Below, piece after piece: positions 3,701 through 57,055 of a stretch of 57,798 bases of DNA. A model generated the notes under the pieces. That model was not told where the DNA came from and searched no databases. It was given only the letters and a program-made list of their open reading frames with translations. How positions within the stretch are numbered: position 1 is the stretch's first letter; the number at the start of each line of letters is the position of its first letter. The position numbers were made by a program, and so were the translations under genes. Source of the stretch: a virus (Duplodnaviria > Caudoviricetes); IMG/VR virus record IMGVR_UViG_3300032893_000052, positions 1 through 57,798 of that record. The stretch is one strand, 5' to 3'.

Positions 3701-3766
3701 TGATAATCCCTCCGAAGTCCTTGAAACCCTTAGGTTTCTGTCAAAGTACCAACAGTCGGAGCTGTC

Positions 3767-3796
3767 ACAATACCGGGCAATTTTTGTAGGTGTCAA
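3767..3796 (-). promoter_or_regulatory. Sigma70-like promoter
   Basis: TTGACA-N18-TATTGT upstream of the GTG at 3700. Confidence 0.55.
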
Positions 3797-3821
3797 CACA
3801 CTGTTGCATCTGTCGGAAACT

Positions 3822-4319
3822 TCACGATTTTTTCGTACCACCGTCGGAGCGTCGACTGAGAATCGCCTTGTATGCGGCACTGATCTCGCGGAAACGTTCC
3901 GGATTCCCACCAGCAATGTCAGGATGGTAGACCTTCGACAGTGCCCGGTAAGCGGCCTGCACTACAGTCAGTGGCGCGTCGTCAAGCAAAAACAGTTTCG
4001 CAAATGGGCTCTCGTCCAGTCCCTGCATGTCAGCTAACAGGTTCGCACCAGCTGCTAACAGCTGCCATTCCATCGGCAGCGCGCCGTAATTGACTTCATA
4101 TCCGTATGAGCGTGACAAATGAACCAACCACGACAACCACGACAAATGCACTGACCACACATGAGTCTTGGCGTTATACTCACGGTAGTTCGCTTTCACT
4201 CCATATCGAACTGCAGTGAGGAGTTTTCCGCCGAGACCGCCGATGTCCACCCAGGCTGGCGGGCGCGCAGTCAGCGTCAAAACCAGCGGCGCGGTGTGGG
4301 CATCACTGGCGGTGGACAT
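3822..4319 (-). CDS. J-domain (DnaJ-like) co-chaperone
   Basis: C-terminal VVQAAYRALSKVYHPDIAGGNPERFREISAAY contains the HPD motif. Confidence 0.9.
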   Translation of the reverse strand: MSTASDAHTAPLVLTLTARPPAWVDIGGLGGKLLTAVRYGVKANYREYNAKTHVWSVHLSWLSWLVHLSRSYGYEVNYGALPMEWQLLAAGANLLADMQGLDESPFAKLFLLDDAPLTVVQAAYRALSKVYHPDIAGGNPERFREISAAYKAILSRRSDGGTKKS

Positions 4320-12823: not shown

Positions 12824-12894
12824 GTCACATACCTCTCAGACTGAGAACCTACCGAAGGTGCACCAAAAGCAACAAGTACTGCTTATGCGTTCAA

Positions 12895-13335
12895 TTACTG
12901 CAATGAAGCAGGAGGAGGAGGAGGAGGCGTAGCCTCTTGCGGATCAGGGACTAGTGTGGCGTTGAAAATGGCGTCCAACATAGGAATAAGCTGCACACTC
13001 ACTTGCGGATGAAAACCGAATCCGACCACAACAACAGGTCCATTCGGCGTGACTATGATCTGCTTTGGAAACATAGCCGCTTCCGACAGCATTCTCCACG
13101 CATCTTCAGGCAGTACCAGCTCTTCACCGTCAAACAATGCATTCACAGCTGTAGAAATGACTGACGCGGCCTTGAGATTGGTGTACGTCTCTACCCATTT
13201 CGGGTTAGTCAACAAGTTGTTGATGAAACTACGAAAAGAAACCACCTCTTCCGGTGTTCCATCGTCTTTTCGCAGAACTTTCATTGTATGTGGGTTATGT
13301 AGCGTGATCGGAAACGGTACCTTGATGTGGCGCAT
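12895..13335 (-). CDS. Hypothetical protein, possible fibre assembly chaperone
   Basis: Small ORF between fibre genes; the role is inferred from position only. Confidence 0.5.
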   Translation of the reverse strand: MRHIKVPFPITLHNPHTMKVLRKDDGTPEEVVSFRSFINNLLTNPKWVETYTNLKAASVISTAVNALFDGEELVLPEDAWRMLSEAAMFPKQIIVTPNGPVVVVGFGFHPQVSVQLIPMLDAIFNATLVPDPQEATPPPPPPASLQ

Positions 13336-14041
13336 ACACTCTCTCCTCTGTTGCTAACGGGTCGAAGTCATCACCATAGTAATTAGTAGGAAGTCTAGCT
13401 ACTGATCCACGTAATGAAAGCTCTGGGTGAGCGGCGGATACCTCACCGATGTGTCTGACGAGAGCAGGAACACAGATCCCGTACTGAGGCCATGGAGAGG
13501 CCTCCAAAAGCTTTCCAAGCGCAGCATCGGCATGGTGGACAGGAGCGTAATCATACACAGGATCACGCTGCACGAGCCAGTCAATCGTCCTGCGTGGAAA
13601 CATCATGCACTGATTGCCAATATATTTGTGACGCAACAGTCCATCGAACCTACGGACATGCAAACCTCTTGAGGCACCACTTCGCAGTTCAACCATGTCG
13701 TGAAAGTCTACAAACGCACAATCTTCTGGGACGCGTGTTTGTAGTATGTGGCGTACAGCATTACGACAGGGAGTAATGTCGTCTTCACAGTACAGCAACA
13801 TGTCTACGTCACGTTGTTTTGCGTAACGAAACGCACGCCACATGACTGCGCGCACGCTACACACAAGCACATGCGATACGGTAGTCCAACCACGGGGCTT
13901 ATCGTCTAGCACACCGTCAACTATCACCGCCTTGTACGTACAGTGATCTGCTCCCTCACGTAACAACGCCTCAGCGGTCTCACGCAGGTATGAGACACCT
14001 CCCGGACGTGCACACGTAGTAATTGTGACTGCCGTTATCAT
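13295..14041 (-). CDS. GT-A fold glycosyltransferase (MGAT4/GT54-like motifs)
   Basis: ITTCARPGGVSYLRET, LLYCEDDI (metal-binding EDD), HADAAL, PALVRHIGEVS. Confidence 0.75.
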   Translation of the reverse strand: MITAVTITTCARPGGVSYLRETAEALLREGADHCTYKAVIVDGVLDDKPRGWTTVSHVLVCSVRAVMWRAFRYAKQRDVDMLLYCEDDITPCRNAVRHILQTRVPEDCAFVDFHDMVELRSGASRGLHVRRFDGLLRHKYIGNQCMMFPRRTIDWLVQRDPVYDYAPVHHADAALGKLLEASPWPQYGICVPALVRHIGEVSAAHPELSLRGSVARLPTNYYGDDFDPLATEERVYAPHQGTVSDHAT

Positions 14042-17000
14042 GTGAATAACGATGGTCCCATCTGACCAGCCAAAGTTAGTCTTGGAACGTTCATGTTGTA
14101 CGCAACAGCATTAGCATGGGCTAGTTCAGATCCGCCTGAATCAAAGCTAGCAGCTGCTCTGATCTTGGCCCCGGCGTTAGAGGCAATAGGTATGATTCCT
14201 GCTGCCACTGAAATTATGTTTCCTGTTCCAGACAAACGTATGATTGTACCTTGGGCAGGACCGGCGTTACTATATCCAACCGTCAGTCCATTCTCGGGCT
14301 GCAACTCTAGGTGACAAACCTCATTCACATTTCCCATAGTTTGGTCAAACTGAGGAATGGCGAGTACGGCTGAAGACGGCGCAGGAGGGTTTTGTAGAGT
14401 CAAATCTAGCGTGTTTCCATCGCTAAAGGTGAGACCATTTGTGCCGTTCAATGGTTCACCGCAGCCGTAAACCCAATCACCTTGGTACGCGACATGTACC
14501 TTACGAGTCGTACCGCTATCGTTACGTGTGTAACCTATACCGATGTATGTACAGCCCATCCGGTTGATTGCTCCTCGTGCACCGAATGATGCAATGTTTA
14601 GAGCGGCACTCGCACAGCCCAAATTCATATCAGGTGTAGTGGTACTGAATACAACAGCAATGGCTGCAGGGTCAGTCACATATGAACCTGAGATATTGCC
14701 GTCACCTGACAATGGATTGTGCCTACCACCACACGCATAGATATAGAATGGCTTCAACAAAATTCCAGAGGTGTTGGTGGGCGGATGGATAGAATCATCT
14801 TCAGCACGCAGGATTCCGTTACCTTGCAATACTTCTCCATCAATTATGACAGAGTTAATCTCGCTTCGTGGACTCCAGGTTGCACTCTGTGTGAGCGTAG
14901 CAGCCGACCAGTTTGGATTACATCCCTGCAAAACTCCCCACATCTGGGACAACGGAAACGACACTCGCCGATTCAATCGACGGTAGAAAAACATACCATC
15001 TACAGTTGATGTCGATGGCGGCACATAGATCTCAAACAAAGCTGTCTTACCTGCGGGAACAGCAGGTGGTTGTGGTGTTGCTCCGGCTGTGCCTGTCAAG
15101 TAGTCAATCGTGGCTGGTTCAGTAGCGTTGTTCGCTAAGATCAGATCAATTCTGGGATTGCCACTTGTCGCCGTCAGTGTTTTGGGTGTGCTAGGCCAGG
15201 AAAATGCCTTGAAGTCAGAAGCGCCGATTGCAGCGTAGCCAGCTCCTGGACCGACTGTGATGTTAAGCGTACCCAACGACAGCGTAAGCTTGCCGGCCTT
15301 AGTCAATCCTGCAATGGGGCGAGGGTCCGCGTTCCAGTCACGGTCATATGTCGTTGTCCCATCTGTAAACAACGATGCATACGACTCGTTACGCGCGAAC
15401 GAATCTAGGTCTACAGCAGTACCAGAAGCCACTGCCGTGGCGCCAAGCGTAAGATGTACAAGCGCCGTATTGCCATCTGCTGGGTGGATAGCGACTATAG
15501 GCCCGAGTGGTACAACCTGAAGTGCTACGTTAGGCGCATCAGCTTGAGCTAAACCAGCAGTGTCCTGTGACAGGTAAGCAATGACAGGAGGTTCAGTCAC
15601 TGTCGGAGCGGGGTGTGCTCCTGAGCGATCGAATTTCACCCAGACAGGAGTTCCAACACAGCTGACAATAGCGGCAGCTTGTGTTGGTGTAGACGTGACT
15701 GTCACGCCAACAATCCCCGTCGCGTGTCCTGCCGTATCCGCTTGCGCAAGAACTACACGACGCTTACGACTATCAGCACGTTGTGTACCACGAACAATGC
15801 GATACGCAGACAACGCAGCAGGAGATGATGGATCATTAGCGTACATCTGTGTGTTGTTCAGAGCCGCACTGCCTCCAGTTACAGTCCCCGCAGCGAGCGA
15901 CACTGCTGCACCGTATGTAGTGACAGCGTTACCGTAAGCATCCTCTACACGTCCTACTGCCGCGAGATTGAACTCTGAGTACGGAAACCCGGAAGCATTG
16001 AAACCCAGGTCATTACCAAACTCAATGTCTCCAACCGCACCGCGCACTGAACAGACACTGTAATCACCTGCAGAGGATAGTGATGACTGCAGGTGCAGTC
16101 TATTGTTGCGTGATGGAGTCTGGAAACTAGAGGTTCCTAGGTCAACGCCAGTAACAAAGCCAATACCATACTGGTTTCCGTTGCTACCTGTCACTTGCAT
16201 TGCAGTGACGGAGCACCCATTTCCAGTGATAGCTACGGCAGGTGTCTGTGTGTTTAAAGACCCGTGTATGACATCAAGACCGTTGAGGATCACTGAACTA
16301 TATGCGATGGTCAGACCAGACGTAGCTATAGCTGTTCCAGAAGACTGTGACGGAAGACCTGTGATGCGGTTTGAATGAAAAGTGTTTCCAGGAGCATTGT
16401 TCGCTGATCCGATCAAAAATGCTCCATTAGACGTATACTGAATGTCTCCAGACGCACCAGTACCTCCACAGCCGATCAAGCGCAAGCCAGCATTGAAGAC
16501 ACAACCTGAGATTATGTCACCATAGCAGTGTGTAATGTCACACGAAGTGCCTGTGGTAGGGAGATGTGAAACAACGTTGAGCGACAGTCTTGATGTGTGC
16601 GCAAAAGTTAGGAAACCCAAAAAGCGGCAACCACCTACTGAAACCGACGTTCCTGTAGGAGCCGAGGAATCTGCGTAGCTACTGGCTAGCGTCAAAGAAC
16701 TACACGATGTTGACAAAAACGAATTACCAGCCTGAACGAATGCCAATACTGCAGAATCGATTCCTTCTACGTTGAGAGTAGTGCAGGTGAAGCCAGTCAG
16801 TCTAATACTGCCGCGCAACGCAGACGTGTGTGTCGAGCCATCTGCAAACCCGACGAAGTTAGAAGCAGCTGGACCGCTGAGTCCGATACGTGCAAGGGAT
16901 ACACCCGGACTCTCTATATAGAACACATCTGAACTTGACAAACCAGTCAGTTCAGTAGATGGAATTATGGTATCGACACCTAACGCAATGATATTGCTGA

Positions 17001-44352: not shown

Positions 44353-45006
44353 CTACTGTACCGCCTCTTGGGATGAGAGGTCCACTAGCTTCGCCTTGAA
44401 CGCGTCGAAGGTCTGGAAATCACCTACATCTTTCATGACCTGGTCCAGCAGTAACGTCCGTCTGTAAAGTTCACGGACTGTCTCCCATTCGGTCTTAAGA
44501 TGACAACGATCACACAACGTAACTAGATTCTCTAGCCGGTGTGCTTCTTCAGGTGAATCGAAGCATCGTTCTGGAACGACGTGATGTACATGCGCGCGCT
44601 TACCTCTGACTGGAGTCATGCAGCGCCGACAAGTGTACTTATCACGCTCACGCGCCAAAATTTTCTGTGCCTTACCAATTGAGTACCAACCACCATCGAA
44701 CTTATGGTTGCCGCGGCCTGCTTGCTCATTCCTTCCATTCTTGGACATACGATGTGACATAGCACAGACACGAGAACAGTATATGTTCCAAGATTGTGCA
44801 GCAGTATTCGCACATCCTGGTTTAGCACATTGTGGACGATTCACATGGTGACGTGACTCCACAATGCGCACATGCATATCCTCATCATAAAGTAACGCAC
44901 CAGGATTATTAGCCAGATATGTTTCTGGCGTAATCCCATGCGTTCTCTGTAGATGAGAATTGGTAATCATTTTGAATGAACGCGTACAAAGTTTACATTG
45001 AACCAT
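44353..45006 (-). CDS. Free-standing HNH homing endonuclease with Zn fingers
   Basis: CKLC...HLQRTH, CAKPGC...YCSRVC, RDKYTCRRC...HVHHVVP...NLVTLCDRCH. Confidence 0.9.
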   Translation of the reverse strand: MVQCKLCTRSFKMITNSHLQRTHGITPETYLANNPGALLYDEDMHVRIVESRHHVNRPQCAKPGCANTAAQSWNIYCSRVCAMSHRMSKNGRNEQAGRGNHKFDGGWYSIGKAQKILARERDKYTCRRCMTPVRGKRAHVHHVVPERCFDSPEEAHRLENLVTLCDRCHLKTEWETVRELYRRTLLLDQVMKDVGDFQTFDAFKAKLVDLSSQEAVQ

Positions 45007-45101: not shown

Positions 45102-46553
45102 TCAACGTGTCAAACGACCTACGTTGATGAATCTTAACCATTTTTTAGGGGCAAACAGGATCGGGGTCCCGTAGAGCAACACCATCCAGCGGAACGCAGG
45201 AGCCAACACCGCAAGATCCATCCGCAGCATAGGAAGCAGCTGACGGAAAGTGAGAACTGACTGTGTCATTTCACCCATGTACGCAATCTCCGTGAACGGC
45301 AGCAGGAAGTTCACATCATTGACTACCGTAGTAGCCGATGCTGCCTGGCTGGTCACAGGAACCTGCAGAATGAGCGAGTACTGCGTTACATCCGTCGGAT
45401 GTGCTGTACCGGAGGCCTGCGGCTCGGTACGGTAGATGCGCAGATACTCTGGAGGAAACGCGCCAATTGAACCAGGGTTGGTTGTGGTAAGCGCGATATG
45501 GTTTCCGTTGTTCTTCTGCGTTGCTGTGATGTCCTGCCCGTTACCGGCGATGAGAGTCGGGGCAGACTCACCAAAGCGATTAGCAGCAGTGACAGCATAT
45601 GCGTAGTTGTTTGTACCAGACGGCGCGCCCTTGTTGAAATCACCGTCTGTACCCGAACCAGTAGACGCTGTGATCGAAGCAGGCGAAGCCGGTGCGTTTG
45701 GTGAAGTAGCTGCAGACGGAGGAGTCGGCAGACGCTTCAAGAACACGTCTGGATTCAGCTCCATCACACCCGCCTGGGTCATGACAGAGTTGACGCTGAG
45801 ACCGACCATCCCGTTCTGTGGAGCTGGAAGCTGGATGCGCTCCTTCGGGTAGAAGGTCTTCACGAGGTCAGAACCTACGCGAGTACCCAACCACAGATCG
45901 GTTGGATAAGCGAAGTTCTCCACCAACTGGTTCGCACCCTCCTCAACGTCAGCTTCCTGGATCGGCTGTCCTTCCAGGTCAATGAACGAGGTTGGGTCGA
46001 TCAGAGCATCGAGACCATCCCACTGCTCAGCCTCACCGTCGAACGCAAGACTGCTGTCACCCTTGAACAATGATGACTCAATCCGCTCAAGCAACCAGAG
46101 AATGCCGTTCTGATTCTCGAGCGCGATCACGTCACCGTGTGCTGGGTGCACAACCGTCATCTGGTGAGTCACCTCACGTGTAGTTCCAATGAACTTCACG
46201 AGTGAAGTGCGACGGGCGTAGCTGGTATCCTGGGTTGGAGGCAACTCACCCTCTTGCACGAAGGCGAATGCATCCGAACCGTAGTCAATCAGCTGGTTGT
46301 ACTCTTCGACAGTGGAGTACGCTGGGCTCTTGGGAATCTTCTTCCACATCTTGATGTGGTGTGCGGTGTAAGTCAGCACCTTGAGGCTGCCTTCCAACGA
46401 CTCCACACGAAGTGAAGAGCCACCAGTCTGGTTAGTGATCTGGTAGCCAGCTTCGAGCGCCTTAGCCAAGTCTCCAATGGACTGACCTTGGTCGATACCG
46501 AAGCCGTTGAGATTCCCCGCTGCGTACGGAGAGTAGTTAGACAAACCGATCAT
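45102..46553 (-). CDS. Major capsid protein
   Basis: KALEAGY...GGSSLRVESLE, KKIPKSPAYSTVEEY, IE.SLF.GD, WDGL, QLLPMLRMDLA, LYG...APKK; SPO1/Twort-like MCP with AAGGAG RBS. Confidence 0.95.
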   Translation of the reverse strand: MIGLSNYSPYAAGNLNGFGIDQGQSIGDLAKALEAGYQITNQTGGSSLRVESLEGSLKVLTYTAHHIKMWKKIPKSPAYSTVEEYNQLIDYGSDAFAFVQEGELPPTQDTSYARRTSLVKFIGTTREVTHQMTVVHPAHGDVIALENQNGILWLLERIESSLFKGDSSLAFDGEAEQWDGLDALIDPTSFIDLEGQPIQEADVEEGANQLVENFAYPTDLWLGTRVGSDLVKTFYPKERIQLPAPQNGMVGLSVNSVMTQAGVMELNPDVFLKRLPTPPSAATSPNAPASPASITASTGSGTDGDFNKGAPSGTNNYAYAVTAANRFGESAPTLIAGNGQDITATQKNNGNHIALTTTNPGSIGAFPPEYLRIYRTEPQASGTAHPTDVTQYSLILQVPVTSQAASATTVVNDVNFLLPFTEIAYMGEMTQSVLTFRQLLPMLRMDLAVLAPAFRWMVLLYGTPILFAPKKWLRFINVGRLTR

Positions 46554-46583: not shown

Positions 46584-47693
46584 TTACTGCGCGCCGCCCA
46601 TTGCCTGAGCGACGAGACCGCGGACCGCTGGAGACATCTCCCCAGTCGAGTCGAACTTGACCAAATCGAGTTGGTTCATTTGGCCCTTCTTAACCAACTC
46701 GAACATGGTATTTGTGATCTGTGCTTTGTTGATTTGGTCGCTAGATACGTCGAGCCCGCCAGGACCAAATGACTTCTGCATCACCTGTGGCTGTCCAGGC
46801 TGCTGTTGGCCACCTGGAAGCGCGCGAAGATGCGACTTAGGACCACCGACAGGTGCGCTAGCCGCAGCCGCGTTCACTTCAACACCGCCAGCAAGCTGCT
46901 GACCGATGCCAATGACTGCTTCAGCAAACCCCTTATTGAAGGTGTCTTGGTGATTTGCGAATCCACCAAAGCTCTTCTCCAGCGCTTCCACGCGAGCAAC
47001 CAGCGAACCCACTGTGTTGTTGATTGCCTTGTTTACAGCCTGGATAGTGCGTGCCTCAGCTCCTTCGAGAGCAACACCGATCGCACGAGTCATCTCGTAC
47101 AGAATTGGTGACATCTCGATCCCCTTGCGGAGATTCGGCTGTGTCTGAGTTGCAGCGTGAAGCGACTTCTTAGCATCAGGCTCAATGTCCTCTTGCTTTG
47201 AAGTACCAGCATTGGTCTCCGGAGCCTTAGGAGCATCGTCCTCTGTACCAGACGCAGGAGCCTTACCAGGAGTCGTGGACGCCTTCGCAGTACCACTCTT
47301 CTTGGTCTTGTCCATGTCGTCCTTGTCATCGTCGTCATCGTCTTTGTCGAAGGGAAAACCCTTCTTCACCGCCCAGGACTCAGCTTGCGTAAGCTTGCCG
47401 CCCTTAGCGATCTTGTCAGCGATTGCACGACGAGGATCCTCACCCTTAACGATCAACACCTCGGCAGGTGTGAGCGCCTTGGACTTGGAAACCTTGTTTG
47501 CCAACGCCTTCTTCACGCCGTTGTAATCAGTGCCGTTGTCGTCGATTCCATCCTCATGCTCGTTCTGGTCAGTCTGGCCTGTGCCAGCCCACGAGCCCGG
47601 ATTCGAGTCGGACGGCGTGTGGTAGAGCTGGCCTTTCGCCAACCCTTCCAGCCTCGACAGGGCTGCGTGGAACTCGTCTCGATTGATAGACAT
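46584..47693 (-). CDS. Putative capsid scaffolding protein
   Basis: Between protease and MCP; acidic and coiled-coil; many Phi-x-K-[S/A/G] sites. Confidence 0.75.
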   Translation of the reverse strand: MSINRDEFHAALSRLEGLAKGQLYHTPSDSNPGSWAGTGQTDQNEHEDGIDDNGTDYNGVKKALANKVSKSKALTPAEVLIVKGEDPRRAIADKIAKGGKLTQAESWAVKKGFPFDKDDDDDDKDDMDKTKKSGTAKASTTPGKAPASGTEDDAPKAPETNAGTSKQEDIEPDAKKSLHAATQTQPNLRKGIEMSPILYEMTRAIGVALEGAEARTIQAVNKAINNTVGSLVARVEALEKSFGGFANHQDTFNKGFAEAVIGIGQQLAGGVEVNAAAASAPVGGPKSHLRALPGGQQQPGQPQVMQKSFGPGGLDVSSDQINKAQITNTMFELVKKGQMNQLDLVKFDSTGEMSPAVRGLVAQAMGGAQ

Positions 47694-47702
47694 GTATGCC
47701 TC

Positions 47703-48551
47703 CTACTGAGTTCCTACTGTTGTGAAAATGGCATCAGCCAGCGCCTTAGCCAACGGAAAGCTGTAACCTCTACGTGCTTGCAAATACCCCACAGCCTCTT
47801 GATATGAGATCTTGTCTGACTTGTGGACATGACCTGGCATCGTCTGCACTTTGGCAGAGCCTTCAAGCGATTGAACGCGAAGCACTCCACCCATACCGCC
47901 AACAGACAGAGCCTTTTCTTCGTCCTCTTTCTTCTTATCCTTGAGCTCTACACTCATGCTCTTGAGTGCAGGACCACATGTGCAGCAGCCGCCTTTGCAC
48001 ACGTCATCCCAAGGATGGAGACACCATTTCTGACTGCCGAGAGACTTTACAATCTCAGCCCACGTGTTTGTGTTGACTGGCGAAGCAGTGATTGCTACGT
48101 CTTGCAGCCAGCACTTAGCAATGGTGTTGCCTTCGCGGCGAAGCACCTTGCCTTGAATGGAGAAACCTACCTTACGGCTAGAGTTGTTCTCTGCGAGAGT
48201 AGTGATGTGTTCCCACCAATACTCGCTACGCTCTTTGCCCTTGTAGAGAAAACCCTTGAGCCACAAACCAGCCGGTGTCATACGGCACTCAGCAGGTTCA
48301 CCAACCTTGTGCTCAGGTCCCTCTTTGTGATCGTCGTTGATGTAGCCGTATTTCAGGAAATAGCCGTAGTCGATACCGTTCTGTCGTACAACCTCACCTT
48401 GAAGGTCACGATCATCGGTAGACGCTATCCCCTGAACCCAGCGCTTCCCATCCTTCGCCTCTGCCTTTGAAAGCTTCTCGACAGGCACGAAGAAATGGAA
48501 AGTGTCTCCATCTCCTAAGAGCTTGTCGGTAGGTGTGTCGTCGAGGCGCAT
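47703..48551 (-). CDS. Prohead (maturation) protease
   Basis: GIAST..RDLQGE, GYINDDH, GL..KG.L, GFSIQG, VAIT..PVN.NT. Confidence 0.93.
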   Translation of the reverse strand: MRLDDTPTDKLLGDGDTFHFFVPVEKLSKAEAKDGKRWVQGIASTDDRDLQGEVVRQNGIDYGYFLKYGYINDDHKEGPEHKVGEPAECRMTPAGLWLKGFLYKGKERSEYWWEHITTLAENNSSRKVGFSIQGKVLRREGNTIAKCWLQDVAITASPVNTNTWAEIVKSLGSQKWCLHPWDDVCKGGCCTCGPALKSMSVELKDKKKEDEEKALSVGGMGGVLRVQSLEGSAKVQTMPGHVHKSDKISYQEAVGYLQARRGYSFPLAKALADAIFTTVGTQ

Positions 48552-49149: not shown

Positions 49150-50223
49150 TCACACGGATTGTCCACCAGAAAGATACCCCGAGTACCTCTCAGGTTCATG
49201 GATCGTCGGCTCTTCGCCGTATTTTCGAGAGTACAGCTTCCGTGGTTCCTCTCCCGGCGGTACGTTGTTGTCAAATGCTACAGCGTCATGCGTTAGTTGG
49301 GCTAACCTATCAAAATTGCCTGGAATTTTGCTGTAGGCGTCCTCGGCAAAGTCCAACGGAACCCAACGACCTGTGTTGAGTGCGCGCTCTGCGACGCGGC
49401 GTTTTCCTTCCTGAATGGGAAGATGTACGCCGACCAAGCGCACGTGGTAGCCCTTGGCCTTTAGATCCTCGACGCGCTTAGCCATCTTGTCATAGTCCGC
49501 ACCCACGCCGTCCAGCAAAACATTCTTGCGCTGAGCTAATGCTGTCTCGCGTATGTTTTTCGCTATGTCGGATGACTCTTCGTGAGTCATGCGTGCAGCA
49601 TTGAGCGCACGTCCCTTCACAGCCTCCTGATACTCAGGCAACTGAGCTTTGATTCCGTCTGGATCCACAGGAACAAAGTCGCTTATGTCCCAACCTTTGG
49701 TAGCGGATGACTTGCCCGAACCTGGGCCGCCCATCATCATGATCGCTACAGGTTTCTTGTCCGGCGGTACTGGTTTGGCTTGACTTAAGAAGTGGTCTGC
49801 GATCTGAGCGTGCAGCTGTGCGCGTTCTGGCGTGTATTGTCCGTTAGCTTGCTTGTACACACTCTGTGTGTCGGACGGAAGGTTATCGAGCTTGTCAACG
49901 AAACCCTGACTGACTAAGTGACTATACAAAGCACCGCTGTCTAGTGGCATATCCGGCGGAATCTTCATCCGCTTGGAATGCTTCTTAGACGGACCAGGCT
50001 CGGACGCAGGGTCATACGGTTTGGCTGTTGGGCTGGCGGCGGCGTTCTCTTCAGTTTGAGCTTCGCCTGGACTAACGTAGTAAGTTTCTTCAAACGTCTG
50101 ACCGTTACGCGTAACCTGACGCTTCATTGGCACGAGACTCTCAGAGCCACCGTGCTTACAGATCAGATCTAGAATCGGGTCTGACTGACCTTTCATTAGG
50201 TTAAATAGACGTTCAACTGACAT
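49150..50223 (-). CDS. Zeta-toxin-family P-loop kinase with N-terminal extension
   Basis: MMGGPGSGKS, VDPDGIK..LPEY, HEESS, NVLLDG, GYHV, R..ER...GRWVP, FDN. Confidence 0.9.
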   Translation of the reverse strand: MSVERLFNLMKGQSDPILDLICKHGGSESLVPMKRQVTRNGQTFEETYYVSPGEAQTEENAAASPTAKPYDPASEPGPSKKHSKRMKIPPDMPLDSGALYSHLVSQGFVDKLDNLPSDTQSVYKQANGQYTPERAQLHAQIADHFLSQAKPVPPDKKPVAIMMMGGPGSGKSSATKGWDISDFVPVDPDGIKAQLPEYQEAVKGRALNAARMTHEESSDIAKNIRETALAQRKNVLLDGVGADYDKMAKRVEDLKAKGYHVRLVGVHLPIQEGKRRVAERALNTGRWVPLDFAEDAYSKIPGNFDRLAQLTHDAVAFDNNVPPGEEPRKLYSRKYGEEPTIHEPERYSGYLSGGQSV

Positions 50224-51020
50224 TACAAGCCTCCGATAGCCAACCTCACCACTGCTGGCAGTTCAGGCTTCTTGCCAACGGCTGCATTGTCGTCTAATGC
50301 TGCGTAGTAATCAGATAACTGCACTACGTACGAATCGATGGTGTCACGGTTTCTACGTAGCAGTTCTTTCTGTGCCAACGTACGTGGCTTGTATACGTCG
50401 TGTCTCCAGTTAGCCAGTTTCAACTGGTTGTTGGTGAGGATTTGTACTTCCTTCACCAATCCGTCTGTATCCTTGATTGCTAGATGATAGGCGCGATAGC
50501 CAGCACGCGGCGTTTCGATATAGTCGTCGTCAGACAGTACTTGGTAACGTGCCTTCACACGCTCAGCTGTACGCATAACCTCCTCGGTAGTGTCTACAAC
50601 CAACCGTACACCTGTCAAATCCTGTAGGTCTGCAGCTGATTTGTAATGTGGCTTATCATGAAGCTTCGCCACAATACTCTCAAGTGTCTTGACACGGCCT
50701 TCTACACGCGTACCTGGCAACGACAGTTTCCGCATGTCTGCGATGAAACGTCCATAGTTAGCTCTATGCTTTGGTAGCTCGTCACTAGCAATCGCAACGT
50801 GCTCTTCGAATGATCGTCCACCTGGCATTTTGCCAGCATACTGATCACGCAGCGACTGAAGCCTGGGCGTAGTATCAACGATGTCAGTGCCGCGTGAGTC
50901 TAGCGCAGCCTCCACAGTCTTCACAACGACACTGCTTTTGGGCGAGTACCCTCGGCTTTCATCATACCAACGTCCGTAGGAATCTCTGCGTAATCGTGAA
51001 GCGAAATACCGTGTATCCAC
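50223..51020 (-). CDS. RelA/SpoT-family small alarmone synthetase
   Basis: GRVKTLESIVAK, DLTGVR, DDYI..P..GYRAYH, EVQILT; no hydrolase domain. Confidence 0.9.
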   Translation of the reverse strand: MDTRYFASRLRRDSYGRWYDESRGYSPKSSVVVKTVEAALDSRGTDIVDTTPRLQSLRDQYAGKMPGGRSFEEHVAIASDELPKHRANYGRFIADMRKLSLPGTRVEGRVKTLESIVAKLHDKPHYKSAADLQDLTGVRLVVDTTEEVMRTAERVKARYQVLSDDDYIETPRAGYRAYHLAIKDTDGLVKEVQILTNNQLKLANWRHDVYKPRTLAQKELLRRNRDTIDSYVVQLSDYYAALDDNAAVGKKPELPAVVRLAIGGL

Positions 51021-53866
51021 TGACTAAACTCTGCTTCATCAGCGGTTCTGTCAGTCAGATCGATTGTTACGTATGGGACTGGGATAGTAGGTGCAGGAAG
51101 TTCAGCAGCGCCTGCACTGCCTATTACACCACGTGCTTTCGCGTTCTGTTGCAGTACCTGCACAACGACAGGGTCAACCAGCACTTCCTGTACTAGTTGC
51201 AGAACACGCAACGGATCGGGTTCGGTGGAAAAATCGTGTCCCCACTCCAATGCTACAGTCATAAGCGCTTGATTGACTGCTTGGTCCCAGGACGCGTGAT
51301 AGTAGCTGAGAAGACGTTCTACCTCACGCGCAAACGTACCGCTAGCATGGTAGGTCTGAAGACCGAGCAAAGACACTCCCTGCATGTCCAACACACGAGA
51401 CAGGTAGTGCGGTCCCATCATCCGACGTACATTCGGATCAATCTTCTCCCGTCCTTGAGAAGCGACAGAGAACAGAGGCATGCTAGAAGGTGTGGTGTTC
51501 TTCATCACCACAAACGCAGTCAGCATCTTAGCGTCCACGTACACCTTACGTGAGCCAAGAGACACGAGCGATCCATCGATCACTACCTGGTCTGGTGTCA
51601 AAGCCGCCAGCTCAACTGCACGCACCTTGCCCTGATCGAGCAAAGCCAGTGCAACTGCAGTCATCTGGTCTTTGAGCTTGTCGGACTTGTTGAACAAATC
51701 GCTGTAATACGTACGCAGACCAGGAAGCCTGGAATCAACCAAAGCGTTCTGTTGGTTGATCGCCAGCTTAGGCAGTTGCCTTATGTCGGCATGTACGTAC
51801 GTGAACCTAAACTCACCTGTGTTTGGATCACGCCAACGACCAACCCACAAGTTCTTTGGGTCGTAGCGATTGTACTTTGAATTCCACTCAACCTGTGACG
51901 GATCGCAGTCTGGACAGCGTGTAAGCTTACGTCCGTCTGGCGTGAAATACTCCGGATTCTTATCATACAACGGTTCTGACTGGTGGAGCTTGGCATCTCC
52001 GTAGAAGTCAGCGCGATCTGGATCTCCTGTAGGCGCGTTGGTATATCGCAGGAGATTTCCTGACTGGTCTTTGTAGTAGAACCGTGGATTGTCGTCATCC
52101 CCCTCACGATGATCATACTCGTGTGTAGGATCAACGTTCTTGTCCCTTGTGAGAAACTGCAGTGCTTTGCGAAGCACACTTTGTTGCTCCGCTAGCGTAA
52201 TAATCCAGTGAGTCTCCCAGGACTTCACTAAGCCGAGATCCTTGCCCATGCCAGCGTCGGATAGCTTCTCCAAAAGCTGTGACACCATGTCAGCACGGTC
52301 ATGTTCCGGAGCTGTACGAATCGCGCGCATAGCTGTCTTGGCTTGCGCAATGATGGCAGCTTTCTCGGGTTTGGTCTGTTCCCAGCGCATCAGCACTTGT
52401 GTGAGACGAGGAAGCACGACCTTCGGATCTAGGTGCTGCTGAGACTCGGCTCGCTCTTCAGGAGTTTGGAGGTGTGCACTCTGTTCTCTCTCTTCTTCCG
52501 TAGCACCTCTCCGTGAAATCTGATCTACACCTTCATCATCATCGCTACTTCCGCTGATACGACTCTGCTTGTCTGTAGCTGCACGTTGTGCGTCTAGAAA
52601 GTAGTTGTTGATCTTGCCGTTCTTACCTGCAAGGTAGCCTGTGAAGTTTACACCAGCCTTGTTTGGATCGAAATTGTCAAGCGCAGACTCTATCGCTTTG
52701 TAGCCAACAGAGTCAGGCATCAGGAACACGTGGTCTGGTGTAGTGCCACGTGAATCAGGCAAGTCTTGCCCAATCCACTCACTCATCACCTCGCGCTTGT
52801 TGCCTTCAAAGAACGGCGTATTGGTCATACGGTCGGCTGCTTGAACCAGCTTCGGCCAATACTGTTTCGCTGCGTGCTGAACTAGTGCTGTCTTCTGTTG
52901 TGGTGTTACATCCAGCTCACGATCACGTGTAGCGTAGTTGTACTTCCACTTCATGGACGAGTGACTAAGCACATCGTCCATAGGTGGGAGCTTGTTGAAG
53001 TCAAGCGGAGGTTTCGTCTCCGTCTTTTCAGGCTCTGGTTTTGGTTTCGGCGTATCCGAACCTTCCGAAGGAACTACGGCAAGCTTTCCACGTGTTGGCG
53101 TACGTCCTAAGGTTTCTTCAATCGCGCCGTACTCATCGTCTAGCAGCTTCTTTGCGTGCGCTAGCGACACTGCGCGGGACACGCCGCCGTCCTTCTTTTG
53201 TAGTTCCTCCGGAAACGACGGGTGATAAACTACCTTGTATTGACGCTCAGGATCTGTTGACCAATCAATCTTGTTGTCTTTGGTGTTGACTTTACCAATT
53301 ACAGGAATGATGTTGAACCACGGACGTCCTTCGGGATCATTGATCGTCTGTGTGTTGGACGTCTGTAGAAACCAGTGCTCATACGCAGCATAGCTGGAAA
53401 AACTCTTCTTGCTCGCACCTTCTCCGTTCTTGCTAAACAGTGACTCAGATGCGTTGTCGTTACGCCGTAGCGTAAGCTTACCGTCACCTTCAGACACCAG
53501 GGTACAATCGGCACCCATGCGGGAGTGACGTACTGGAATAGCAGTACCAGGCTGACTTAGCGCTGTGATGCACGCCTGTCTGTATGCCTTCTCTGGCTCA
53601 ACACCTTCTGTAGCGCCCGCTACCTCTACAGTGTGAGATTTTGGAACGACCTGGAATGCTGCGCGCTCTGTCGTCTCGCCTGTACGAGGGTTTGTGATCT
53701 CTACCTTGTACGGCTTCTCATATATCTCAGGCACAGCACCAGCACCGTGTGCTTCTGCCTTCTCGCCAGTATAATCATACTGCCATTTGCCATTATCCCA
53801 CCAACGCCGGACATATTTGTGCCCCGGGCGTTCGGTGGAACCTTGTGGCGCGCCGCTGTCATTCAT
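50921..53866 (-). CDS. Multidomain protein: sigma70 region-2-like segment plus degenerate topoisomerase IB-like domain
   Basis: AIESALDNFDPNKAGVNFTGYL matches the sigma region 2.2-2.3 pattern. LPGLR...AVALALLDQGKVR...L.PDQV.I.G...LF...LQTYHAS...VALEWGH...LVDP matches the TopIB pattern. The ORF itself is certain; the domain calls are by eye. Confidence 0.65.
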   Translation of the reverse strand: MNDSGAPQGSTERPGHKYVRRWWDNGKWQYDYTGEKAEAHGAGAVPEIYEKPYKVEITNPRTGETTERAAFQVVPKSHTVEVAGATEGVEPEKAYRQACITALSQPGTAIPVRHSRMGADCTLVSEGDGKLTLRRNDNASESLFSKNGEGASKKSFSSYAAYEHWFLQTSNTQTINDPEGRPWFNIIPVIGKVNTKDNKIDWSTDPERQYKVVYHPSFPEELQKKDGGVSRAVSLAHAKKLLDDEYGAIEETLGRTPTRGKLAVVPSEGSDTPKPKPEPEKTETKPPLDFNKLPPMDDVLSHSSMKWKYNYATRDRELDVTPQQKTALVQHAAKQYWPKLVQAADRMTNTPFFEGNKREVMSEWIGQDLPDSRGTTPDHVFLMPDSVGYKAIESALDNFDPNKAGVNFTGYLAGKNGKINNYFLDAQRAATDKQSRISGSSDDDEGVDQISRRGATEEEREQSAHLQTPEERAESQQHLDPKVVLPRLTQVLMRWEQTKPEKAAIIAQAKTAMRAIRTAPEHDRADMVSQLLEKLSDAGMGKDLGLVKSWETHWIITLAEQQSVLRKALQFLTRDKNVDPTHEYDHREGDDDNPRFYYKDQSGNLLRYTNAPTGDPDRADFYGDAKLHQSEPLYDKNPEYFTPDGRKLTRCPDCDPSQVEWNSKYNRYDPKNLWVGRWRDPNTGEFRFTYVHADIRQLPKLAINQQNALVDSRLPGLRTYYSDLFNKSDKLKDQMTAVALALLDQGKVRAVELAALTPDQVVIDGSLVSLGSRKVYVDAKMLTAFVVMKNTTPSSMPLFSVASQGREKIDPNVRRMMGPHYLSRVLDMQGVSLLGLQTYHASGTFAREVERLLSYYHASWDQAVNQALMTVALEWGHDFSTEPDPLRVLQLVQEVLVDPVVVQVLQQNAKARGVIGSAGAAELPAPTIPVPYVTIDLTDRTADEAEFSQWIHGISLHDYAEIPTDVGMMKAEGTRPKAVSL

Positions 53867-53867
53867 C

Positions 53868-54221
53868 TCAGTCAGAGAGTACTACGTCTTCATTGGAAAT
53901 TTCGTACCGTCTCAACCCACCTTCTGACGTTTCGGTCAGAAGGCCTGCTCGAACCAGTTCATCAATGACTGGTCCGGTAAACCCGCGACGGAGGAGTTCC
54001 CCCCTTGTGGCTGGCCTCCGCTTGTGATCGGTGTGGTCCTTGATACGAGAGAGTAGTCCGTGGACCCAGATGGCGCCTTGACCGGCAAGCTTGGCGATGG
54101 CTGCAAGTTGGGCTGCTCTGGCGCGACTCCCAAGAGATCCTGTTGATCGAGCAAGAATCCTATGATCTCCTGCCGTGCCTGCTCTGGCGGTTGCCCCTGA
54201 AATGTGTATGCGTTGCCCCAT
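53868..54221 (-). CDS. Possible overlapping winged-HTH-like ORF (start uncertain)
   Basis: Stops 1 nt before the next ATG. TRGELLRRGFTGPVIDELVRAGLLTETSEGGLRRYEI looks like a helix-wing. Confidence 0.35.
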   Translation of the reverse strand: MGQRIHISGATARAGTAGDHRILARSTGSLGSRARAAQLAAIAKLAGQGAIWVHGLLSRIKDHTDHKRRPATRGELLRRGFTGPVIDELVRAGLLTETSEGGLRRYEISNEDVVLSD

Positions 54222-55018
54222 ATCTTACTCGCGATCTCCATCAACTGTGGGTCGGGCGCAGAACCAATACGTCCTAGCAGTTGTTGTACACCTTCAAGCG
54301 TCTCTACGTCGATGGGAGGTGGACCCATTCCCATCATGGGCATCATGCCAGGTATCATGCCGGGCATCACTGGCTGCATAGGCATTCCAGGAGCCTCGGT
54401 TCCTGGAACCGTTGGACCTATATCGTTGGGAAGTATTGCTTTGGAAGTGACGAACATCCGCTTGAACGCTTCGACAGTAGTCTCAGTCATACTGTCGAAG
54501 AAACGCGGATTGTCGTAGTGCATAAGATAGGCTGCTTTAGCTTCGCGTGGACTCTCAAAACCGAGCATGACCTTATCTTCATCATACGTCTTGAAGTCAG
54601 GCTTACGCACTTGGTGTACAATGAAAACCTTGTCTGACTTCTCGTTTGGACCAAGGAACACATCCACTTGGTCACCGTCAGCACCTTCTGTACGCCGAAT
54701 GTACCCATATGGATACGACATCTTCGTCTTGCCACTCTCTCTAGAGTGTGGGTCATACCAATCACGGTATTGTCCCTTGTCGTTCTCAATCGAGATGTCC
54801 AGTCCCTGGAAGTTCACACGACGAACGACCTTGCGTCCGCTGGACTTCTTCCAACTGACTGAACGGGTGGTGTCTACATCAAACACGTCAAAGTGACATG
54901 CCATCTCAAGCACGTCACTGGAGTGGTCGTGATCGTGCGCGGTAGTGGACTTCTTTACGGAACAAGCTCCGCTGTTACACGGCTTGCCTGTCGCGCATGA
55001 GTCACAACAAGCACCCAC
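53936..55018 (-). CDS. Protein with a polyvalent-protein-type inorganic pyrophosphatase (InPase) domain
   Basis: GLDISIENDKG...MSYPYGYIRRTEGADGDQVDVFLG...YDEDKVMLGF...AY; Cys/His-rich N-terminus and Pro/Met-rich linker. Confidence 0.85.
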   Translation of the reverse strand: MGACCDSCATGKPCNSGACSVKKSTTAHDHDHSSDVLEMACHFDVFDVDTTRSVSWKKSSGRKVVRRVNFQGLDISIENDKGQYRDWYDPHSRESGKTKMSYPYGYIRRTEGADGDQVDVFLGPNEKSDKVFIVHQVRKPDFKTYDEDKVMLGFESPREAKAAYLMHYDNPRFFDSMTETTVEAFKRMFVTSKAILPNDIGPTVPGTEAPGMPMQPVMPGMIPGMMPMMGMGPPPIDVETLEGVQQLLGRIGSAPDPQLMEIASKIWGNAYTFQGQPPEQARQEIIGFLLDQQDLLGVAPEQPNLQPSPSLPVKAPSGSTDYSLVSRTTPITSGGQPQGGNSSVAGLPDQSLMNWFEQAF

Positions 55019-55432: not shown

Positions 55433-57055
55433 CTACACTAGCTTAAGGAACGACTCCAACGCCTTGTAAGCAGTCGGTTCCACATACGTACTCTGACTGC
55501 CTGCATTCGTTGGAGGCGACAACGGACCAGCAGCTTGTGGTCGTGGCATACCTTGCGGTGCTTGCATTGTGTTTGAACCAGCAGCGGGCTGCACTTGCGT
55601 CATACCAGGAACAGGCCCTTGCCTCAGCGGCATCGGATTACCCATGATAGGCTTTCCCTGATCCGGTGACAGCAATGCCTGCAGGCTCGCTAATGGATCG
55701 CGTGGCGCTCCACCTGGCGGTGAACCACCAGGTACACCAGGAGGACCACCAGGACCGCCACCTTGCTGCGTTCCCATGGGCGGTTGACCTTGTGGCGTTC
55801 CCATAGGCGGTTGACCTTGGCTTGCAACAGGTGGCTGTGCTGCAGGGGGCGGTGGTTTAGGCAGCGTCATACCCGGCAGACCTGTAGCAGGACTCTGTTG
55901 TTGTCCGCCACCCATGCCCATACCTGGCTGCATCATTGGTGGTTGTGGACGCGGTTGCGGCGGTGCCCCCATACCGGGAGGGGACACACCCATTCCTTGA
56001 CCGCCACCCATCCCCATGCTGGGCGGTGGTTGCTGTGGCGGACGCATTGGTGGCTGTATCTGTGGTGGCTGCTGTGGCGGTACTTGTCCAAACGGACTAC
56101 CGGAACCTGTAGGCGACGGCGGCATGCCTCCAGGGCCAGGCATTTGAGGTGGACGCACTTGCCCAGGAGGAGGTTGACCCGTACCCATCGCGCCTTGACC
56201 AGGTAGCATGCCACCCATCATAGGCGGCGGTGCTGGTTTGGCAAGCGTCGGCATGCCTCCACCCGCTTGTGGTGTAGGAGAAGGCGCACCCATTCCTGCT
56301 GAACCTGCGGGCGGAGGAGCGCCCGGCGTTCCCATTCCCTGTCCTGGTGTCTGTGGCATTCCCATTCCAGGTGGTTTTGGTGCTTGTGCCATAGGCATTC
56401 CCGCACCCGGACCTTGTAGATTGGGTTGCGGCTGTCCTGGCATAAGCGTACGTCCACCTTGCGGCGTACTGTTCATCGGACCTTGTGGCGGACCACCAGG
56501 AGCTTGACCAAACTTGGCAGCGAACCGCTCCATTGGAGACTGACTGTCGTTGCCCATCTGCTTGTGTGCAGCAGCTGCTTGCAGATGTTGTGATGTCTCT
56601 TGTGGACTAGACGCACCTGCAGCTAGACGCTCGTGATGAGCAGCAGCGGCTTCATGGTCATCTTTGCCGAAGTCTTTGTGCGCAGGGTGGAACGGATCAC
56701 CATAGATAGGGATTCCAGATGGTGCCATACCAATCGGATTACTCTGACTATTGGGCATTGCACGCGGCTGCGAAGCACCTGTCATTCCACCACCAGGGAT
56801 CTGCGGTGCACCTTGCTGTAGAGGTACGTCTGGTGTGCCGAGTGCTTTGAGCACAAGTTCCGGACTCAGCTCTGGTACAAAGGCATTCGGACGGTAAGCA
56901 GATGGATAACCGTGAAACGCACCACGAGTAGTGATTGGCGTACCCATTCTGTGGTGCACTTCCGTCCTCTCAGCATGAGAACTCGACTTTGTGATGGGTT
57001 CCGCAAACGTCGGATCAACCCAGTTGAGAGGCCGCTTAGCGCCGTGGTTTGTCAT
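55433..57055 (-). CDS. Pro/Gly/Met/Gln-rich intrinsically disordered protein
   Basis: 540 aa. A His/Ala helical motif (HPAHKDF..DDHEAAAAHH) is followed by about 340 aa of low-charge P/G/M/Q sequence. Confidence 0.85.
   Translation of the reverse strand: MTNHGAKRPLNWVDPTFAEPITKSSSHAERTEVHHRMGTPITTRGAFHGYPSAYRPNAFVPELSPELVLKALGTPDVPLQQGAPQIPGGGMTGASQPRAMPNSQSNPIGMAPSGIPIYGDPFHPAHKDFGKDDHEAAAAHHERLAAGASSPQETSQHLQAAAAHKQMGNDSQSPMERFAAKFGQAPGGPPQGPMNSTPQGGRTLMPGQPQPNLQGPGAGMPMAQAPKPPGMGMPQTPGQGMGTPGAPPPAGSAGMGAPSPTPQAGGGMPTLAKPAPPPMMGGMLPGQGAMGTGQPPPGQVRPPQMPGPGGMPPSPTGSGSPFGQVPPQQPPQIQPPMRPPQQPPPSMGMGGGQGMGVSPPGMGAPPQPRPQPPMMQPGMGMGGGQQQSPATGLPGMTLPKPPPPAAQPPVASQGQPPMGTPQGQPPMGTQQGGGPGGPPGVPGGSPPGGAPRDPLASLQALLSPDQGKPIMGNPMPLRQGPVPGMTQVQPAAGSNTMQAPQGMPRPQAAGPLSPPTNAGSQSTYVEPTAYKALESFLKLV

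Follow-up and report, generated by a model that had tools for sequence, protein, structure and literature searches.

Why would a phage keep, among the genes that build its head, a topoisomerase without the residues needed to cut DNA, and why would the same protein also carry a piece resembling a sigma factor? The first minutes of a phage infection are decided by proteins that the capsid delivers, few of which have a known mechanism. The question is raised by a 981-aa open reading frame (ORF) in the IMG/VR virus record IMGVR_UViG_3300032893_000052, the whole of which (57,798 bases, estimated completeness 34%) is the window analysed here. A model working from the sequence alone had described the ORF as a fusion of a sigma region 2-like segment with an apparently catalytically dead type IB topoisomerase (TopIB); we refer to this as the original prediction. 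Follow-up analysis indicates a head-module protein that joins a sigma-like domain to a TopIB module without DNA-cutting residues, and that consists, from the N-terminus, of an N-terminal region, a domain resembling domain 2 of sigma-70, an acidic linker, a helical bundle and a complete TopIB module (N-terminal beta and catalytic domains). The ORF is present on the minus strand as predicted, starting at the first ATG downstream of an in-frame TAG and leaving a 69-nt spacer to the upstream gene, and all of the strings on which the prediction was founded were located in its translation (ESALDNFDPNKAGVNFTGYL at residues 393–412; LLDQGKVR, ending in R749; LGLQTY, holding Q837; WGH, holding H877; VLVDP, holding L896).

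All long ORFs of the window lie on one strand. Because the window contains a tail sheath gene (phrog_279 match) and encodes a major head protein 43–47% identical to the major head proteins of Bacillus SPO1-like phages, its source is taken to be an uncultivated myophage; related contigs measure 148–171 kb. The protein belongs to a conserved family with at least 104 cluster representatives, almost all of them from phages that have not been cultivated (104 at E≤1e-3, of which 49 reach E≤1e-30, in a search of 1.84 billion proteins), which couples a sigma-derived domain to a TopIB module and holds both apparently active and clearly inactivated forms. The homologues looked up were unnamed or annotated ‘hypothetical protein’. 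Common to the family is the C-terminal core of ~400 residues, which stands alone (370–490 aa) or within proteins of 1,400–1,800 aa.

The TopIB module and its catalytic centre

A TopIB fold at the C-terminus had been set beforehand as a test of the original prediction, and the last 422 residues came out as TopIB by structure prediction and by two structural searches. The AlphaFold2 (AF2) model of residues 560–981, built on a 57-sequence alignment, reached a predicted local distance difference test score (pLDDT) of 93.5 and a predicted template modelling score (pTM) of 0.90. Foldseek matched it to TopIBs of the PDB at every rank from 1 to 22 (best, D. radiodurans 2f4q, E 1.8e-7; human, variola and vaccinia enzymes also included), tyrosine recombinases coming after. 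VIA, an aligner independent of Foldseek, likewise placed TopIBs at ranks 1–6, headed by D. radiodurans 3m4a_A (Z 19.6, root-mean-square deviation (rmsd) 2.9, 211 residues aligned, model residues 139–398) and followed by five at Z 16.3–13.1. Identity as a tyrosine recombinase was rejected: recombinases scored Z≤11.3 in the same comparison, PF00589 gave a weak match in 1/39 members (E 0.022), and the nucleophile Tyr is missing throughout the close clade.

Sequence comparison pointed the same way. The family profile matched TopIBs of the PDB (6z01_A, E 2.9e-6; vaccinia, 2.4e-4; variola, 7.7e-4; D. radiodurans, 2.7e-3), and matches in BFVD were to viral TopIBs, among them the annotated enzymes of two jumbo phages, PaBG and Motura. 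PF01028 (Topoisom_I) was matched weakly in 4/39 of the closer members (best E 5.9e-4) and above its cut-off (31–84 bits) in 6/6 distant homologues, which had been picked for scanning by length and by the presence of R or Y at catalytic columns. Since the alignment to 6z01_A begins in beta strands ahead of the catalytic domain, the N-terminal domain of TopIB is represented as well; the beta-rich region that holds these strands (residues 576–697) is the best conserved of the protein, with 55–80% identity among homologues. Taken as a whole, the TopIB module shares 46–80% identity, compared with 14–74% for the remaining regions, and the 52 columns invariant among ten close homologues fall, the start Met aside, entirely at residues 690–960. 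The least conserved parts are residues 256–300 and 441–480.

Three of the five catalytic positions are affected—the second Arg, the Tyr and the Lys hairpin—rather than the two that had been claimed. The first catalytic Arg and the His are kept by alignment, as predicted (R749 and H877). The motif KDFRTW has become LGLQTY, placing Q837 opposite the second Arg in TopIB alignments, and the tyrosine motif has become VLVDP, placing L896 opposite the Tyr of the canonical phage TopIB. To these two substitutions is added a deletion that had gone unnoticed: relative to intact relatives and the canonical phage enzyme, the target clade is missing ~12 residues after R749 and ~9 residues from the Lys hairpin. 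In a hidden Markov model alignment of 111 rows (fragments included, and four rows being locus proteins that duplicate P-numbered entries), position 837 was Q in 50 and R in 19, position 896 was L in 46 and Y in 18, and D898 was kept in 101/106 rows having a residue there. Every row of the close clade is without both the second Arg and the Tyr, the nucleophile position being occupied by L, A, M, V, T or S, and canonical chemistry is disabled across the whole of that clade, in keeping with the description ‘apparently catalytically dead’.

Intact forms were found further away. R, H and Y occur together in five distant members, two of which (P0065 and P0091) also have the first Arg and a GK hairpin, making up the full pentad. 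The TopIB part of P0065 matched a single GenBank phage record, that of Phage NCTB (LT598654.1), a 258-kb phage whose protein 227 (L010:6041-7726, 561 aa, annotated ‘Phage protein’) is a canonical TopIB that has all five catalytic residues but lacks a sigma-like segment. Its motifs read ARIGSKGN, EGKK, FRTL, LGH and NYIDP, and its Tyr aligns opposite L896.

From these alignments the target's TopIB module appears to be a derived pseudo-enzyme under strong purifying selection. As a natural pseudo-enzyme held under strong constraint, the dead form makes the non-catalytic use of a TopIB clamp directly testable, candidate uses being the gripping of DNA, the protection of DNA ends and the tethering of a transcription factor.

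Beyond the TopIB core lies a family-specific motif, EFSxWxHxxxxH (residues 944–957; window positions 50996-51037), the last His of which (H957) was kept in 101/103 rows, including members with an intact catalytic centre. It is a possible metal or partner site.

The sigma domain 2-like segment

The second fold set beforehand as a test, that of sigma domain 2, was found in the middle of the protein. The AF2 model of residues 296–575 (39 sequences) had a pLDDT of 84.8, exceeding 90 over most of model residues 10–145. Among the 50 VIA matches listed for this model, 22 covered model residues 1–158 (Z 6.1–8.0), and all of these were sigma factors, chains of RNA polymerase (RNAP) initiation complexes or a sigma-derived scaffold; 18 were named as sigma (for example SigB, Z 8.0; pro-sigmaK, 7.4; AlgU, 7.0; sigma70, 6.8). 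The N-terminal domain of SigE aligned over 78 of its 80 residues (Z 7.2, rmsd 2.2). The other 28 matches listed were generic helical bundles on model residues 162–259.

As these Z values are middling, support was sought from sequence. A profile of the target clade's own segment (A4) picked out an equivalent segment (E 1e-11 to 1e-7) in distant members of the family, where it resembles sigma region 2.2–2.3 (AVxxFDPxxGxxFSTY, as in AVERAVNSYDPSKGWRFSTY). A profile of those distant segments (A5; seven of eight, P0071 being omitted as the weakest match) was then matched to the PDB, and 14/18 matches at E≤10, including all of the top 12, were sigma factors (SigE, E 0.0011; RpoS, 0.007–0.041; WhiG; FliA). 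The two profiles aligned to each other by hhalign with a probability of 98.0% (E 2.7e-13), and Pfam Sigma70_r2 matched homologue P0067 at the equivalent place (E 3.5e-4, below the cut-off). By profile, the domain was recognised in 6/6 locus homologues scanned (L001–L006) and in most of the representatives scanned. The chain from target clade to distant members to known sigma factors makes homology of the middle segment to sigma domain 2 likely.

No sigma region 4 was detected in the middle model or among its structural matches, in agreement with the original prediction: residues 481–575 gave only generic three-helix matches, and the one VIA match that spans both the sigma-like part and the helical bundle, a sigma-28, did so with an rmsd of 20.4. 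Because region 4 was not detected, promoter recognition in the manner of a full sigma factor is unlikely. Complex prediction of A4 with residues 240–340 of E. coli beta-prime scored 0.15 and 0.14 against a mark of 0.32, which is evidence neither way.

A fixed place in the late head block

Within the late head block the gene holds a fixed position. In eight related IMG/VR loci (33–69% identical, on parent contigs of up to 171 kb) the gene order is the same as in the window (Table 1), with an InPase homologue upstream in 7/8 loci (the eighth being cut by the contig end), the protease downstream in 8/8 and the portal upstream in 2/2 loci tested. What varies is the stretch between the TopIB-like gene and the protease, which holds two RelA/SpoT genes, a Zeta-like kinase gene, a gene whose product has an anthrax-lethal-factor-like peptidase domain, or no enzyme gene at all; in the window a small Zn-ribbon ORF stands between the Zeta-like gene and the protease. 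Nothing promoter-like precedes the target gene, promoter-like sites being at chance level (4 found, 4.6 expected). Because of this fixed place and the nature of the neighbouring genes, the protein is probably capsid cargo.

Table 1. Features of the 981-aa protein and its neighbours (positions are those of the window; -, minus strand; ↓, putative cut)
Feature	Residues	Position	Strand	Basis
ORF of 981 aa plus stop (P0001)	1–981	50921..53866	-	open reading frame and translation
N-terminal region, opening with KYxxR...WxYxY	1–255	53102..53866	-	no Pfam, PHROG or PDB match
KYxxR...WxYxY motif	17–32	53771-53818	-	pattern; also in homologues of L001–L006
Sigma domain 2-like helical domain	301–440	52547..52966	-	AF2 model, VIA, profile chain
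Acidic linker, predicted disordered	441–480	52427..52546	-	pLDDT <50 at model residues 148–159
Helical bundle	481–575	52142..52426	-	model helices; generic three-helix-bundle matches only
Candidate cut motif K549↓S550 (GLVK↓S)	546–550	52217-52222 (K549-S550)	-	Phi-x-K↓[S/A] pattern
Candidate cut motif K568↓A569 (VLRK↓ALQ)	565–571	52160-52165 (K568-A569)	-	Phi-x-K↓[S/A] pattern
Beta-rich region	576–697	51776..52141	-	last strands align with TopIB N-terminal domain (NLWxGRWxDPxTGxxxYTY); start of 6z01_A profile alignment
TopIB catalytic-domain fold, inactivated centre	698–960	50987..51775	-	VIA match to 3m4a_A; residue equivalences from alignments
First catalytic Arg, kept	R749	51620-51622	-	opposite Arg of MRVG/FRVG in profile alignments
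Basic pair in shortened Lys hairpin	R773/K774	51545-51550	-	alignment
Gln in place of second catalytic Arg	Q837	51356-51358	-	opposite Arg of FRTY/LRTY/FRTW
Catalytic His, kept	H877	51236-51238	-	profile alignments
Leu in place of nucleophile Tyr; D898-P899 kept	L896	51179-51181 (L896)	-	opposite Tyr of canonical phage TopIB YIDP
540-aa upstream ORF		55433-57055		no Pfam or PHROG match; ~480–770-aa homologues at same position in related loci
InPase-domain protein, 360 aa, upstream neighbour		53936..55018	-	PF18823 E 4.3e-39; PHROG minor head, virion, DarB-like matches
RelA/SpoT-domain protein, downstream neighbour		50223..51020	-	PF04607 E 7.3e-16
Zeta-toxin-like kinase		49150..50223	-	PF06414 E 3.7e-31
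Prohead protease		47703-48551	-	phrog_1028 (E 3.4e-50) and phrog_752 (E 2.6e-103) matches in protease-to-head block; synteny in 8 loci
Scaffold-like protein		46584-47693	-	synteny in 8 loci
Major head protein		45102-46553	-	synteny in 8 loci; block matches as for prohead protease
HNH endonuclease gene, directly downstream of major head protein gene		44353-45006		

The company kept by distant homologues is similar. Among the six scanned with Pfam, an InPase domain was fused just after Topoisom_I in 5/6, and ART-PolyVal, S-adenosylmethionine (SAM) lyase and DUF5661 domains were present in some, all of them domains that characterise phage polyvalent proteins; proteins that bear InPase carry minor head or portal annotations in isolates. 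The main text of Iyer, Burroughs, Anand, de Souza and Aravind (2017, PMC5512222) proposes that ‘polyvalent proteins’ are packaged and injected, and that InPase may clear pyrophosphate for early transcription or replication. The suggestion in the original prediction that the protein is injected is thus supported by gene context, the portal-to-protease position and the InPase, RelA/SpoT and Zeta flanks being typical of polyvalent or capsid cargo; delivery itself is drawn from that context.

Two candidate sites for the prohead protease lie just before the TopIB module and are kept in 7–8 of 9 homologues. In head proteins the corresponding patterns are (D/E)LxK↓ALEAGY near residue 30 of capsid proteins (DLAK↓ALEAGY in the window), (L/M)AK↓(G/A/S) near residue 20 of scaffold-like proteins (LAK↓G in the window) and (E/D)K↓ALS in the C-terminal part of the proteases (EEK↓ALS in the window), and VLRK↓ALQ of the target is closely like L-x-K-A-L-E, the presumed maturation site of the capsid protein. 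Phi-x-K-[SAG] occurs five times in the target, close to the 3–4 that a hand estimate gives for chance; the conservation and placement of two of these motifs are suggestive only, and the sites are offered as a lead.

Residues 1–260 gave no usable match in the ESM Atlas (template modelling score ≤0.38). The target and its homologues open with a motif of the type KYxxR(T)G.PG.Y.Y.Y, which recurs, sometimes twice, in cargo proteins of the head block of locus L003 (L003:1221-3026, 2921-4252 and 12245-14977); a degenerate copy, HEYDHREGDDDNPRFYYKD (residues 582–600), stands ahead of the TopIB module. The motif may serve the cargo proteins as a common tag, or be a small hairpin domain that they share.

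Several further observations concern the neighbouring genes. The GTG start listed for the RelA/SpoT ORF falls 100 nt within the 3′ end of the target (50921-51020), its true start possibly being further downstream. A Zeta-toxin domain is also fused to the C-terminus of homologue P0010, and an HExxH string occurs in the C-terminal extensions of P0002 and P0003. An anthrax-lethal-factor-like metallopeptidase domain was recognised in the 910-aa cargo protein at L003:12245-14977 (PF07737, 28.7 bits; cut-off 27.4). Mobile elements were seen at several points: a NUMOD3 homing endonuclease gene that separates the InPase gene of L006 and L007 from the TopIB-like one, intein-like insertions (Intein_splicing, LAGLIDADG_3) in the portal genes L001:15-1517 and L002:782-3784, and, in the InPase gene of L002 (7314-9884), a LAGLIDADG-like insertion together with a weak Phage_Mu_F match. 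The 540-aa ORF upstream in the window was considered as a portal gene and rejected, having no portal match, with the portal lying further upstream in related loci.

General searches gave little. The full-length target had no Pfam match at E≤1, and its PHROG and PDB sequence searches returned noise only; megablast of 11.8 kb of window DNA against 50,697 GenBank phage records found no match, and profile A1 gave 600 pattern matches against genome contigs, none of which was confirmed and none of which offered a prophage or host clue. Profile A2 comprised 56 of the 104 homologues (short fragments and some long proteins were left out) and A3 comprised 38.

Proposed role and comparison with known systems

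The reading we favour, at a probability of roughly 0.55, is that the protein is a capsid-delivered, non-cleaving DNA clamp derived from a sigma–TopIB–InPase cargo module. Its TopIB module would no longer cut DNA and would instead form a C-shaped, non-covalent clamp on the duplex. The protein would descend from, or be kin to, the sigma-like/TopIB/InPase cargo polyproteins of related phages, some of which have all catalytic residues, InPase having become a separate adjacent gene in the target's lineage. It would be made late, along with the head proteins, and taken into the capsid, perhaps with a cut by the prohead protease after K549 or K568, and would leave with the DNA to sit on the incoming genome in the new cell. 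In the least certain step, the sigma-like domain would contact the host RNAP core and help or redirect the first transcription; binding to the core, and the decoy, early-factor or DNA-protecting roles put forward in the original prediction, we infer rather than observe.

A number of observations weigh against this reading. VIA scores of the size found for the sigma-like segment are within reach of unrelated helical models, and Foldseek gave no match to the middle model at E≤1e-3, sigma factors being scattered among its weak matches (best E 0.79). PF04542 found nothing in the window at E≤10, and the target itself has no Pfam match; A4 retrieved no sigma factor from the PDB, its sole match being to a designed protein (A3 also retrieved none), and hhalign against E. 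coli RpoE gave 0.6% for A4 and 1.8% for A5. By eye the segment of the target clade is less sigma-like than that of the intact relatives (FTGYLAGK as against FSTY...WW). When the same 50,697 phage records were searched by tblastn, the whole protein had no match at E≤1e-5 and the TopIB module alone a single one at chance level (E 0.03), so that no cultured relative was found. Packaging is argued from gene position and neighbours; the two K↓ sites, if cut, may leave the sigma-like part and the clamp as separate proteins in the mature head; and the remaining R749, R773/K774, H877 and invariant Y839 may confer residual or altered activity.

First among the alternatives, and itself somewhat unlikely, is a structural or DNA-handling head protein, in which the dead clamp would bind the packaged genome (condensing it, holding its ends, or piloting or protecting it at ejection) and the sigma-like part would be a relic or a protein–protein adaptor with no role in transcription. 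Much of the evidence above suits such a protein: the gene belongs to a late head operon, lacks a promoter-like site of its own and is fixed in the portal-to-protease block while the surrounding enzymes vary among phages, conservation is much higher in the TopIB module than in the sigma-like one, which is itself degraded relative to intact relatives, and candidate protease sites fall between the modules. On the other side, the conserved link to InPase fits a role after entry, given the pyrophosphate clearance proposed in the main text of PMC5512222, and both the retention of the sigma-like domain across the clade and its confident model argue that it has kept a function.

More doubtful is a bolder version of the favoured reading, drawn by analogy with T4. 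In T4 late transcription, gp55, a sigma factor reduced to domain 2, is activated by the DNA-loaded sliding clamp gp45; the virion would, on this analogy, carry a domain 2-only sigma tethered to a DNA-encircling dead clamp, gp55 and gp45 in one polypeptide, which would load on the entering genome. Equally tentatively, core RNAP might then start early transcription with neither host sigma nor a −35 element, InPase clearing the pyrophosphate.

Less probable again is an injected sigma decoy, whose sigma-like domain would occupy the sigma site on the host RNAP core and shut off host transcription, the clamp serving to localise it or being incidental. The sigma domain 2 fold, the lack of a detected region 4, which makes promoter recognition of the full-sigma kind improbable, and the neighbouring RelA/SpoT and Zeta-like kinase genes, which point to host manipulation, are all in its favour; however, conservation is strongest in the clamp and not in the sigma-like part, and the number of cargo copies in a capsid is small relative to cellular RNAP.

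Least probable is that the protein is still an enzyme, cutting or joining DNA or RNA non-canonically with a rewired centre (R749, R773/K774, H877 and Y839 or another Tyr). In its favour are the retention of two of the five canonical residues and of the basic pair in the hairpin, the conservation of Q837 and L896 within the clade, and the full pentad of some relatives. Against it stand the loss of the Arg in contact with the scissile phosphate, the truncation of the Lys hairpin and the lack of a Tyr at the nucleophile position throughout the close clade; Y839, too, is nothing new, canonical TopIBs having Y or W there (FRTY, FRTW).

If the sigma-like part binds RNAP, the protein would represent a new phage route to seize or start transcription on entering DNA, and a prokaryotic counterpart to the virion-packaged topoisomerase of poxviruses. 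The original prediction knew of no described protein with this architecture, and literature searches agree: full-text searches yielded no paper that connects polyvalent or head proteins with TopIB or a sigma-like domain. The main text of PMC5512222 has the word ‘topoisomerase’ a single time, in the title of a reference, and makes no mention of ‘sigma’, ‘integrase’ or ‘tyrosine recombinase’, although its supplementary domain lists may bear on the point. New here are the inactivated, InPase-split form, the account of its inactivation at residue level, and the profile chain for the sigma-like domain.

Among known systems, the polyvalent proteins described in the main text of PMC5512222 are alike in having many domains and lying beside head genes, and share InPase, ART-PolyVal, SAM lyase and DUF5661 with the distant homologues; they differ in that the cargo domains of the target's phage are separate genes. 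With canonical TopIBs (D. radiodurans 3m4a/2f4q, variola and vaccinia 2h7f/1a41, NCTB BN7874_227, and the canonical jumbo-phage enzymes of Pseudomonas phage PaBG and Achromobacter phage Motura, both ‘putative topoisomerase I’ in BFVD) the target shares the two-domain clamp fold and the order of motifs (LPxLR, first Arg, hairpin, xxTY, GH, xIDP). Unlike them, it has Gln for the second Arg, Leu for the Tyr, and a shortened Lys hairpin and post-Arg loop, and it adds a conserved N-terminal beta extension, EFSxWxHxxxxH, the sigma-like fusion and a location in the head operon.

Members of the tyrosine-recombinase/TopIB fold that are catalytically inert and serve as DNA binders include SPbeta MrpR, phi3T SroF and yeast Ndc10, all of which appeared in the VIA list (8a0a, Z 8.1; 9rd5, 7.3; 3sqi and 4aco, 4.2–3.9). 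Like the target, they use the superfold without a working nucleophile; theirs, however, is recombinase-derived, lies outside any head module and has no sigma-like domain. T4 gp55 offers a functional analogy only, that of a domain 2-only sigma relying on a DNA-encircling protein in place of region 4, and the complex, 7d7d, was matched by the middle model at Z 6.3; gp55 and gp45 are, however, separate proteins made during infection and their clamp is a replication ring, whereas the target would combine its parts, a dead topoisomerase included, in one polypeptide. A further parallel is vaccinia TopIB, which is packaged in the virion core and which, in the work of Da Fonseca and Moss in 2003, was reportedly found to aid early transcription. 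It is a particle-carried TopIB tied to the first round of transcription, as is proposed for the target, but an active one, in a eukaryotic virus with an RNA polymerase of its own, whereas that of the target is dead and belongs to a phage.

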